Positions 10,317-12,549 of a stretch of 64,000 nucleotides of DNA are shown piece by piece. The translations under genes were made by a program, and so were the position numbers. Origin of the DNA: Escherichia coli (GTDB taxonomy: Bacteria > Pseudomonadota > Gammaproteobacteria > Enterobacterales > Enterobacteriaceae); NCBI RefSeq assembly GCF_048403405.1, contig NZ_CP183129.1, one strand, 5' to 3'. The notes beneath the pieces were generated by a model. That model had not been told where the DNA came from. It searched no databases and worked only from the letters and a program-made list of their open reading frames with translations. Within the stretch, counting starts at the first letter, position 1, and the number at the start of each line of letters is the position of its first letter.

Positions 10317-10461
10317 ATTGCGCTCCTGATTGTTGCAGGTAGTGTCTCTCTTCGAAGCGGATAAGTCAAAAACATATATGGTTTAACGAATGTGTATGTG
10401 CAGAGGAAGGTAATAGGTGTGAATTTTGAGTTGGCTATTCATTTGAAAGGAGGTCTGAATC

Positions 10462-10550
10462 AGGACGTAAAAAAACCGACTTTGCGTCGGTTTTTTACTT
10501 TCCAGCCCTGAGTTGGTGGCTCTGGCTGGAGTGAGAGAGCTCTTATCTAA
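10462..10550 (-). ncRNA. agrA: agr-type antisense sRNA repeat (agrA-like copy) of the dinQ type I toxin-antitoxin locus
   Basis: About 90 bp directly repeated at 10693-10790 and partially at about 10945-10980 in the dinQ 5' region; contains a near-palindromic hairpin aaaaaaaccgactttgcgtcggtttttt usable as a terminator on the minus strand. Orientation and agrA/agrB naming follow the recalled K-12 arrangement (agr RNAs transcribed opposite to dinQ). Confidence 0.45.
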
Positions 10551-10692
10551 CAGTTCAATACTATTAGCCAGTGGCTAACATTGCAAGAATTAGCGATTTC
10601 TTCAGCTGGAGAAGGGACAGTTTGCTATACATGTTGGTGAAAGAGGATTTATATACTTTCATCGGGTCGCTGCCGTACCAAGCCTTGTCCGA

Positions 10693-10790
10693 ATCCGGAC
10701 GTAAAAAAAACCGACTTCGCGTCGGTTTTTTACTTTCCAGCCCTGAGTTGGTGGCTCTGGTTGGAGTGAGAATGCCATCATCTAACGCAT
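10693..10790 (-). ncRNA. agrB: agr-type antisense sRNA repeat (agrB-like copy, nearer dinQ)
   Basis: Second copy of the roughly 90-bp repeat (..ggacgtaaaaaaaaccgacttcgcgtcggttttttactttccagccctgagttggtggctctgg..); same hairpin-terminator architecture as the first copy. Confidence 0.45.
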
Positions 10791-10850
10791 CAATGCTAAT
10801 ACCATACTGAAACTATTGCAAGGACGTGCTGGTTTTATAACCTGCATGTA

Positions 10851-10866
10851 CTGTATGATTATCCAG
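10851..10866 (+). promoter_or_regulatory. Candidate LexA (SOS) box upstream of dinQ
   Basis: ctgtatgattatccag fits CTGT-N8-ACAG with one mismatch in the distal half-site; lies about 200 bp upstream of the dinQ ORF. Confidence 0.45.
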
Positions 10867-11059
10867 TTAGCTCTGAGGCATTTTCACTCTGGTAATGCGC
10901 ATAAACGCTTTCAAAGTCCTGGTCAGAAGTACGGGTGGTGCCGTTAACTGATGCTCTGGCCGGAGTGAGAGAGTTCTTATCTAACAATGAGACATGCGCC
11001 GTGACAGGCAGTGGATGAGTAAGCGGATGCATTCTCACTCCATAGCATGGAGAAAACGG

Positions 11060-11143
11060 GTGATTGATAAAGCAATCATCGTTCTTGGGGCGTTAATTGC
11101 GCTGCTGGAACTGATCCGCTTCCTGCTTCAGCTTCTGAACTGA
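11060..11143 (+). CDS. dinQ: DinQ small membrane toxin peptide (type I TA), 27 aa
   Basis: GTG-initiated small ORF translating to (M/V)IDKAIIVLGALIALLELIRFLLQLLN, a single hydrophobic helix; too short for the ORF track. Located in the arsR-gor intergenic region as in K-12. Confidence 0.6.
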   Translation: MIDKAIIVLGALIALLELIRFLLQLLN

Positions 11144-11159
11144 TAGCGGAAACGTAGCT

Positions 11160-11191
11160 AAGGGCAAAGAGCACACCACTCTTTGCCCTTT
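11160..11191. terminator. Bidirectional intrinsic terminator between dinQ and gor
   Basis: Perfect 10-bp stem gggcaaagag / ctctttgccc with 7-nt loop, placed between the convergent dinQ and gor 3' ends. Confidence 0.6.
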
Positions 11192-11196
11192 AACAT

Positions 11197-12549
11197 TTAA
11201 CGCATGGTCACGAACTCTTCTGCCGCCGTCGGGTGAATGGCGACGGTATTGTCGAAGTCTTTTTTGGTCGCCCCCATCTTCAGCGCCACCGCGAAGCCCT
11301 GCAACATTTCATCCATACCAAAACCAATGCCGTGAATTCCGACAATCTTCTCTTCCGGTCCAACGCATACCAGTTTCATGCGGCACGGCTGGCGGTGAGT
11401 GGTGACGGCGGTATACATCGCGGTGAAAGAGGATTTATACACTTTCACCTGATCGTCGCCGTACTGCTCGCGCGCCTGCGGTTCCGTTAAACCAACAGTC
11501 CCAATCGGCGGATGGCTGAAGACCACGGTCGGAATGTTGCTGTAATCGAGATGCTCATCCGGCTTGTTATTAAACAGGCGTTCAGAGAGACGGCGACCCG
11601 CTGCAACTGCTACCGGTGTCAGTTCCACTGCACCCGTGTTATCGCCCACCGCGTAAATACCTTCAACGTTGGTATTTTGATATTTATCGACGACGATATA
11701 GCCTTTTTCGTTAGTTTTAACGCCAGCGGCTTCCAGGTTGATGTTGTCATTGGCAGGCTCGCGACCAATCGCCCAAATCAGGCAATCCACCGTTTCACTA
11801 CGCCCATCTTCCAGCTCCAGCGTCAGGCTGCCATCGGCATTTTTCACCACCGCTTTCGGGATGGCATTGGTATGCAACTGTGGGCCTTCGGCGTTCATCA
11901 CTTCGACCAGCGTTTCAGAGATCATCGGGTCGAAGCTGCGCAGCGGCGCGTGTTTACGTACAAACAGATGCGTTTTCGCGCCGAGGCCGTTAATCACGCC
12001 CGCCAGTTCAACGGCGATGTAACCCGCGCCAACAACCGCTACGCGCTCTGGCAGCGCCGGAAGGGCGAAGAAGCCATCAGAATCAATACCGTATTCCACG
12101 CCCGGAATATCCGGGTGGCTCGGACGACCGCCGGTGGCGATCAGAATATGATCGGCCGTGATGGTTTCACCGTTAACTTCCAGCGTTTTGGCATCAACGA
12201 AGCGGGCAAAGCCTTTGATTACATCAACGTTATTTTTACCGAGCACGTTTTCATAGGAAGTATGAATACGGTCGATATAGGCGGTACGGCTGGCGATCAA
12301 CGTTTCCCAGTTGAATTTATTGATAGTGGTATCAAAACCATAATCCGGGCCGTACATGTGGATCGCTTCACGGATTTGCGCCGCGTGCCACATCACTTTC
12401 TTCGGTACGCAGCCAACATTTACGCAGGTGCCGCCCAGTTCTTTGGCTTCAATCAGCGCGCATTTCTGACCGTACATAGCCGCGCGGTTGATGGAGGCGA
12501 TACCGCCGCTGCCGCCGCCGATGGCGATGTAATCATAGTGTTTAGTCAT
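11197..12549 (-). CDS. gor: Glutathione reductase
   Basis: 450-aa ORF; N-terminal FAD-binding GxGxxG (IAIGGGSGG) and redox-active disulfide motif [13 protein letters not shown]. Confidence 0.95.

Follow-up and report, generated by a model that had tools for sequence, protein, structure and literature searches.

A probable K-12-type dinQ-agrAB toxin-antitoxin locus in an Escherichia coli chromosome, and variation of its agr copies across Escherichia

The region between arsR and gor in the window analysed here (a single stretch of DNA of 64,000 nucleotides) is almost certainly the chromosomal dinQ-agrAB type I toxin-antitoxin locus of Escherichia coli, and its sequence predicts the functional configuration described for K-12. 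As read from the sequence, all of its parts are intact and ordinary, and it departs from K-12 by allelic differences only. Since the region is dinQ-agrAB itself, it has been described before (Weel-Sneve 2013; Kristiansen 2016), and the window adds nothing new to it; the only parts that might be new are a lineage-dependent pairing between the agr sRNAs and dinQ and a relic of gor that lies between the two sRNA genes. A sequence-only reading of the same DNA had named the locus, and every element of the architecture that it listed was present and agreed with curated models or with the K-12 reference.

Alignment to K-12, which that reading had put forward as a check, was run and gave 94.7% identity over the region, with agrA and agrB annotated at the homologous MG1655 positions and an identical gene order (dinQ b4613, agrA b4712, agrB b4713). 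The arsR-gor synteny is also preserved, as both flanking ORFs are present here and are annotated in a matching genome, E. coli TUM14771, which is 100% identical over 10330-11200. PGAP called dinQ in that genome (WP_001295215.1) at the same coordinates and called no agr genes. The sequence-only reading had called the locus easily missed by ORF-based annotation, and in the matching RefSeq genome such annotation captures it in part. This confirms that a type I toxin-antitoxin locus of this kind is recognisable from raw sequence. The window as a whole reads as unremarkable E. coli chromosome (chuA, chuS, slp, arsRBC, dinQ, gor, rlmJ, prlC onwards), its only Rfam matches above the gathering score are the two AgrB matches and a shuA thermoregulator (207-238), and the importance of the locus within it is small. 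The features are collected in Table 1.

Table 1. Coordinates, strands and basis of the features of the arsR-gor region, in window positions.
Feature	Position	Strand	Basis or detail
arsR	9963-10316	-	ORF; annotated in matching genome
agrB, antisense sRNA antitoxin (predicted), 82 nt by K-12 annotation analogy	10469-10550	-	Rfam, K-12 alignment
agrB promoter (predicted)	10558-10586	-	-10 TAGTAT (10563 to 10558), 17-nt spacer, -35 TTGCAA (10586 to 10581)
Decayed gor fragment (gor'), agrB-agrA spacer	10626-10678	-	Same orientation as gor
agrA, paralogous sRNA	10704-10785	-	Rfam RF02891 over 10702-10785
agrA promoter (predicted)	10793-10821	-	-10 TAGCAT (10798 to 10793), 17-nt spacer, -35 TTGCAA (10821 to 10816)
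LexA operator (putative), TACTGTATGATTATCCAGTT	10849-10868	+	Identical to K-12 operator; overlaps dinQ -10 and transcription start
dinQ primary transcript (predicted), ~330 nt, +1 = 10866	10866-11195	+	Published landmarks fit
Element 1, U16-C28	10881-10893	+	
AgrB target (third, partial repeat)	10953-10986	+	Repeat search, 34-nt core comparison
Element 2, G94-G106	10959-10971	+	
Element 3, U167-U178	11032-11043	+	
Element 4 and SD GGAG, A182-G187	11047-11052	+	
dinQ ORF, GTG start, 27 aa, predicted single-pass inner-membrane toxin	11060-11143	+	NCBIfam, RefSeq position
12-bp hairpin, convergence point of dinQ and gor	11160-11190	.	Inverted repeat, 100% complementary
gor	11197-12549	-	ORF; annotated in matching genome

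The repeat search returned a direct repeat of 98 nt at 88% identity (10469-10566 and 10704-10801), which extends leftwards via 10453-10475 and 10687-10709 (91% identity) to a unit of ~114 nt (10453-10566, 10687-10801) with a period of 235 nt. A 34-nt family has three copies (10519-10552, 10754-10787 and 10953-10986), the third of which matches the first at 32/34 positions (94%) and the second at 25/34. The repeats had previously been placed at 10462-10550, 10693-10790 and ~10945-10980, coordinates that proved good to ~10 nt. Their description as a "roughly 90-bp triple repeat" stood as to the three copies but not as to length, the full unit being ~114 nt and exceeding 90 bp because it includes the agr promoters. 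Palindromic terminator hairpins, which had also been claimed, were found in both long repeats: each holds the palindrome AAAAAACCGAC-5 nt-GTCGGTTTTTT, giving an 11-bp stem and then a U run on minus-strand RNA. Left of the dinQ target, no ungapped similarity to the agr body was found, and Rfam scored that sequence at 22.7 bits (E 0.56).

Both long repeats matched the Rfam AgrB family on the minus strand, agrB over 10467-10550 with 108.1 bits (RF02891, gathering score 40; E 7.7e-20) and agrA with 98.3 bits (E 1.2e-17) and two non-canonical pairs flagged, values that put the repeats beyond chance. The arsR-proximal copy, which aligns to K-12 agrB b4713, was assigned to agrB and the dinQ-proximal copy to agrA by K-12 alignment and the K-12 sRNA sequences, a distinction absent from the sequence-only reading. 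The layout of agrB comprises 34 nt at the 5' end complementary to dinQ +88 to +121, an internal stem-loop and a rho-independent terminator, and its computed fold (-30.1 kcal/mol, z -5.6) agrees with the Rfam consensus. AgrA folds at -22.9 kcal/mol (z -2.4), with a G to A change that opens the first stem. The promoters read upstream of the two genes share the same geometry and would place transcription starts at 10550 for agrB and at 10785 for agrA, with 7 nt between each -10 and the start; in K-12, consensus-like -10/-35 sites and identical start sites are described for both (PMC3567139). The agr promoters score 8/12 against the consensus, and the threshold of our generic scan was 9/12. This promoter and terminator scan recovered none of the known elements, because the agr promoters and the terminators (below its criteria) fall just short of its thresholds, and it was treated as uninformative.

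Pairing was compared over the 34-nt cores. AgrB and the dinQ target form 32 Watson-Crick pairs and 1 G-U pair with 1 mismatch (duplex dG -61.2), as against 33/0/1 for K-12 AgrB and its own target; the additional G-U pair, at 10540, leaves the computed duplex energy unchanged at -61.2. AgrA forms 25 Watson-Crick and 4 G-U pairs with 5 mismatches (dG -43.7), and K-12 AgrA forms 26/4/4. Set against the K-12 values, it is these pair counts and energies that put the window in what is probably the K-12 functional state. Judged by pairing, AgrB is a well-matched sRNA in this strain, as in K-12, and AgrA is a poorly matched paralogue with a weakened stem-loop; the predicted duplex with AgrB also bears out the earlier proposal of antisense pairing with the dinQ 5' UTR. 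RNAduplex applied to the full-length sRNA and mRNA was rejected in favour of these cores, as the duplex that it predicted was artificially long and full of loops. Weel-Sneve et al. termed agrA degenerate (PMC3567139), and T1TAdb simply takes the more stable partner.

Control of dinQ by LexA is likewise predicted from the DNA. The operator seen in K-12 as the dinQ LexA box (heterology index 4.83; PMC3567139) recurs here without change, its CTGT-N8-CCAG core at 10851-10866 and the dinQ -10, TATGAT, at 10854-10859. A search with the LexA consensus (perfect 20-mer palindrome, ≤3 mismatches) found no match because the real box has 5 mismatches by our count, and identity to the K-12 operator was used instead; on that footing the LexA-box-like site noticed earlier holds up as a putative site of LexA binding. 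Setting +1 at 10866 fits the published landmarks of the dinQ transcript (G1, U16, G88, G94, G106, A119, C120, U167, U178, A182, G184-G187; PMC5066626). The sole landmark that changes is C28, which is U here and gives a G-U pair with G94 in duplex 1:2. The processed, translatable form would start at +44, or 10909. All four UTR elements occupy the published positions, and duplex 1:2 was reproduced base for base in the MFE fold of the +1 RNA. The 3:4 hairpin and 2:3 duplex, which in K-12 were derived by SHAPE probing (PMC5066626), were not reproduced in the MFE folds of the +1 and +44 RNAs, a result that we took as evidence in neither direction. The 34-nt agrB recognition sequence of K-12, whose counterpart here is 10953-10986, is reported as G88-A119, within stem S1 (G94-C120) (PMC5066626).

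The 27-codon hydrophobic ORF singled out by the sequence-only reading runs from the GTG at 11060 to the stop at 11143, nested in a 49-aa ATG ORF (10994-11143). Its translation from the GTG is VIDKAIIVLGALIALLELIRFLLQLLN, with Met as the first residue in the cell, and the peptide is identical in K-12, where the GTG start was demonstrated experimentally (PMC3567139). It matched the NCBIfam equivalog NF041472 (toxin_DinQ) at 54 bits against a cut-off of 30 (E 1.4e-14); Pfam has no DinQ family. Downstream, the hairpin between dinQ and gor (fold -18.6 kcal/mol, z -6.0) differs from that of K-12 by a compensatory double change, GGGCTAAGAG/CTCTTAGCCC to GGGCAAAGAG/CTCTTTGCCC. A published proposal makes it the dinQ terminator, and it may terminate gor as well.

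How such a locus would work can be drawn from the K-12 experiments (PMC3567139, PMC5066626), which are the source for DinQ toxicity, sRNA rescue and transcript sizes and are applied here by way of the near-identical sequence. LexA bound to the operator over the -10 and the transcription start would repress dinQ. DNA damage would then give a primary transcript of ~330 nt from which no translation is expected, as pairing between elements 1 and 2 keeps the SD closed in hairpin 3:4. Loss of 43 nt from the 5' end would yield the +44 RNA, in which element 2 could pair with element 3 and the SD would open, allowing synthesis of the 27-aa DinQ peptide, its insertion into the inner membrane, depolarisation and a fall in ATP. 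AgrB, presumably made constitutively from the opposite strand ~400 bp upstream of dinQ, would pair in trans through its 5' 34 nt with dinQ +88 to +121, covering element 2. This pairing would close the SD hairpin again and create a substrate for cleavage by RNase III.

We then turned to the locus across Escherichia. Of 5426 complete E. coli genomes, 5422 carry the locus, 4603 the LexA promoter with the leader, and 3841 (~71%) the inter-agr spacer, which marks two agr copies plus the target as in the window. By subtraction, ~760 genomes carry one agr copy (for example strains 4848, 12690, 23CRST011 and O26 FWSEC0001). A further class of ~820 genomes, exemplified by MS1170, carries a hybrid that joins an agr body directly to the dinQ target; the promoters of both agr genes and of dinQ are deleted together with the LexA box, and the DinQ ORF is unchanged. 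A single crossover eliminates both promoters together, and the repeats thereby allow safe loss of the system. Copy number and cores were read in a sample of 21 E. coli genomes, and frequencies are otherwise counts by identity band.

Between GGAGTGAGA and ATCTAAC, the agr/dinQ repeat has an 8-nt core that is polymorphic across Escherichia, its types being GAGTTCTT, ATGCCATT/C, TAGTC(G/A)TC and ATGCCCAC. The core co-varies in the dinQ target and one agr copy, and every promoter-bearing dinQ in the complete and isolate genomes read was accompanied by at least one agr copy of matching type. Which copy this is differs among strains. The agrB-position copy fits best in the window, K-12, E. coli B, ET201 and W46. 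In 6 of the 14 two-copy Escherichia genomes read (E2865, Sx181, C311, N4220121, AHB6 and E69), the agrA-position copy is clearly the better one, with 31-30 pairs vs 28 and dG of -56 to -61 vs -44 to -49. It is slightly better in O157:H7 PA20 (30/1/3 vs 28/1/5; dG -54.3 vs -48.8), and the copies are about equal in O145 RM13514 and E. whittamii. Where there is a single copy it matches the target (8/8 one-copy Escherichia genomes read: six E. coli, E. albertii and Escherichia sp. E1V33).

As to frequency, the ATGCCATT target 94-mer occurs exactly in 1571 complete genomes. Forty evenly spaced ranking records, classed by match signature against fetched exemplars, gave very roughly one quarter in which agrA fits, one quarter to one third in which agrB fits, and a remainder that is O157/O145-like, one-copy or hybrid; such haplotype frequencies are only rough because multi-piece repeat matches blur the identity bands of long queries. 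Metagenome contigs with two copies showed the same agrA/agrB split. One-copy metagenome contigs are unreliable because repeats can collapse in assembly; several, in which the target is of K-12 type and the core is that of K-12 agrA, look like short-read collapse of the two repeats and were left out of statements on copy number. One metagenome contig with a different genomic context carried a further core, GTTCCATC, in both agr copy and target.

The spacer between agrB and agrA holds a remnant of gor. This fragment (gor', Table 1) is identical to gor 11412-11464 at 44 of 53 positions, with a Smith-Waterman score of 70 (shuffles 17 ± 2.5, maximum 26), and its counterparts in K-12, in E. whittamii and in an E. 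coli genome with one agr copy are ~77 nt long. In E. albertii, the 3' end of gor together with the same distal piece lies left of the single agr gene. In E. coli, E. whittamii and E. albertii alike, the agrA-position copy has a gor fragment immediately to its left. The place of the fragment between the agr genes speaks for an ancient duplication of the entire locus, and the observations together suggest that agr-dinQ-gor' was duplicated in tandem and that the upstream dinQ was then lost, which would have left an orphan antitoxin. Gene conversion among the three repeats may later have reassigned the sRNA that fits the target.

Together, these comparisons incline us, by a small measure, to the view that AgrA is not a mere degenerate duplicate, and that the matching copy differs by lineage with duplication and gene conversion behind it. 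The core types and pairings are firm as facts of sequence, and it is from them that we infer a functional switch and the history behind it. A lineage-dependent switch of the matching agr copy was not described in the literature that we found, of which our coverage was incomplete. The K-12 labels, with AgrB as the antitoxin and AgrA as a dead copy, call for caution before use in other strains. The co-varying cores offer natural compensatory variants with which the pairing rule of the sRNA can be tested, and could matter for work on sRNA antitoxins.

For the strain of the window itself, we regard it as unlikely that AgrA and AgrB are both working antitoxins, whether redundant or additive. Deletion of agrA in K-12 raised full-length dinQ RNA 3-fold (PMC3567139), 29/34 positions of the AgrA core are pairable here when G-U pairs are counted, and the promoter and terminator of agrA look intact. 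Yet K-12 AgrA, at 26/4/4, left SHAPE reactivity around the SD unchanged and neither inhibited translation of the +44 RNA nor counteracted toxicity (PMC3567139, PMC5066626), and the AgrA of the window, at 25/4/5 and dG -43.7, is slightly worse than that of K-12 and has an extra mismatch in stem-loop 1. Four mismatches also abolish antitoxin function in the related dqlB-agrB system (PMC12365149).

Very improbable, in our assessment, is a silent relic, kept by linkage and neither transcribed nor toxic, since promoters, LexA box, SD, GTG, ORF and terminators are all intact in the window, the dinQ/gor hairpin differs from that of K-12 by a compensatory double substitution and the match between AgrB and its target is maintained. 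What speaks for it is the hybrid class, with both promoters gone in ~15% of complete E. coli genomes, from which it follows that the locus is dispensable. The repeats contain palindromes and are intergenic, features that they would share with generic REP/BIME-type debris unrelated to dinQ, but we give that origin practically no credence: it is refuted by the Rfam AgrB matches (E 1e-17 to 1e-20) and by the distribution of the repeats, which occupy one to three places in each genome and lie at this single locus of the chromosome, and the third copy lies within the dinQ 5' UTR in antisense register. The reading that we retain is that of a dinQ-agrAB locus in the K-12 configuration.

With dinQ-agrAB of K-12 MG1655, the locus shares genes, order, orientation and the flanks arsR and gor. 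Neither the DinQ peptide nor the LexA box differs between the two, the four UTR elements depart from K-12 only by C28 to U, and in both strains it is the agrB copy adjoining arsR that matches dinQ well. Most of the differences in the intergenic region fall in the gor-like spacer (~83% identical), in which K-12 has a 4-nt deletion that is absent from the window. The agrA core is ATGCCATC here and TAGCCATC in K-12, and a C to A change lies in the loop of hairpin 3:4 (11044).

The plasmid system dqlB-agrB (pOXA-48; IncL/M, IncI1, IncX) has a toxin and a 5' UTR homologous to those of dinQ, and in it an antisense RNA resembling AgrB base-pairs over ~35 nt of the UTR (PMC12365149). There, a 4-nt mismatch destroys antitoxin function and a compensatory change restores it, demonstrating that pairing is necessary; unlike the chromosomal locus, it is a plasmid-borne addiction module for which no second agr copy is described (PMC12365149). 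The SOS-induced tisB-istR1 system of E. coli resembles dinQ-agrAB in having a LexA-controlled toxin with an inert primary mRNA that is activated by 5' processing (tisB +42, dinQ +44), and in its divergent, non-overlapping, trans-acting antitoxin, which pairs with the 5' UTR to form a duplex cut by RNase III (PMC5066626). The two systems are unrelated in sequence, and whereas IstR-1 competes with the standby ribosome, AgrB would re-close the SD hairpin from a distance.

Other type I loci that are duplicated on the chromosome, such as zorO-orzO, also employ a divergent sRNA that pairs within a long, processed 5' UTR. Loci of that kind are tandem duplicates with copy-specific pairing in which the whole toxin-antitoxin pair is duplicated, whereas here only the antitoxin copy survives, beside a fragment of gor.

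In E. coli, the inter-agr spacer (10551-10701), which separates the agrB and agrA sRNA genes, occurs as two haplotypes that have diverged deeply from each other, and divergence is far lower in the flanks than in the spacer itself. We found the O157-like haplotype carried by the window in 810 genomes (at least 95% identity) and the K-12-like haplotype in 3029 genomes (~82-83% identity). Copy number varies as well: among 5426 complete E. coli genomes, two agr copies are present in ~71%, a single copy in ~14%, and in the remaining ~15% a hybrid locus joins an agr body to the dinQ target. The hybrid has lost the promoters of agr and of dinQ, together with the LexA box, by deletion, and its DinQ ORF is still identical. 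This variation is illustrated by loci L003 (strain MS1170), L004 (strain 4848), L006, L011, L012, L119 and L124.

The spacer also holds a decayed fragment of the neighboring gor gene (gor'). Among the loci compared with the window (L005, L018, L036 and L013), the fragment spans ~77 nt in K-12, E. whittamii and one one-copy E. coli, and in E. albertii the 3' end of gor together with the distal gor piece lies to the left of the single agr gene. These gor remnants beside agr in E. coli, E. whittamii and E. albertii suggest an old duplication of agr-dinQ-gor' from which the upstream dinQ would then have been lost.

Coordinates of features in the window
Feature	Position	Strand	Remark
8-nt repeat core, agrB	10537-10544		
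8-nt repeat core, agrA	10772-10779		
8-nt repeat core, dinQ target	10971-10978		
gor' fragment, decayed	10626-10678	as gor	between agrB and agrA; 44/53 identical to gor 11412-11464
59-aa ORF	10859-11038	-	antisense to dinQ 5' UTR
shuA/chuA 5' UTR thermoregulator (Rfam RF02597)	207-238	+	60.1 bits; directly upstream of chuA ORF (236-2218)

Between dinQ and gor, the hairpin at 11160-11190 differs from that of K-12 by a compensatory double substitution (GGGCTAAGAG/CTCTTAGCCC to GGGCAAAGAG/CTCTTTGCCC), a variant shared by E. albertii and strain E69. The 59-aa antisense ORF has a counterpart labelled 'hypothetical protein' in some RefSeq genomes (e.g. WP_001296816.1 in E2865) and is probably not a genuine gene. 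Elsewhere in the window, the RF02597 match sits immediately before chuA; hence this strain possesses the chu cluster for haem uptake.

Relatives of dinQ and agr were also seen elsewhere. An agr-like gene and a LexA-box promoter occur in a different genomic context in Citrobacter amalonaticus (L030), where the sequence diverges beyond leader element 1 in a way that would fit an interrupted dinQ, and in metagenome contig Ga0153982_1000001 (L115), where dinQ is complete and its target core, GTTCCATC, is matched by that contig's own agr copy. The target motif GGAGTGAGA...ATCTAAC is retained in the 5' UTRs of dinQ-like (dql) genes in Serratia sp. H1w (L033), Pantoea (L042) and Enterobacteriaceae MGYG-HGUT-00110 (L043).

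The agrA core region (10762-10775) forms a perfect 14-nt inverted repeat with the sequence around dinQ element 3 (11029-11042), so that the AgrA transcript contains GCAUUCUCACUCCA, the same sequence as dinQ +164 to +177. In dinQ targets with an ATGCC core, as found in agrA here, duplex 2:3, the translatable conformer, would have 13 bp rather than 9.

Comparing the window with loci L004-L012, L022, L116-L124, L013, L034 and L036, we found that the 8-nt agr/dinQ core is polymorphic across Escherichia and that changes in the dinQ target go together with changes in one agr copy. In E2865, Sx181, C311, N4220121, AHB6 and E69, the copy at the agrA position is the good match to the target and that at the agrB position the poor one, so that the two roles are swapped relative to K-12 and the window.
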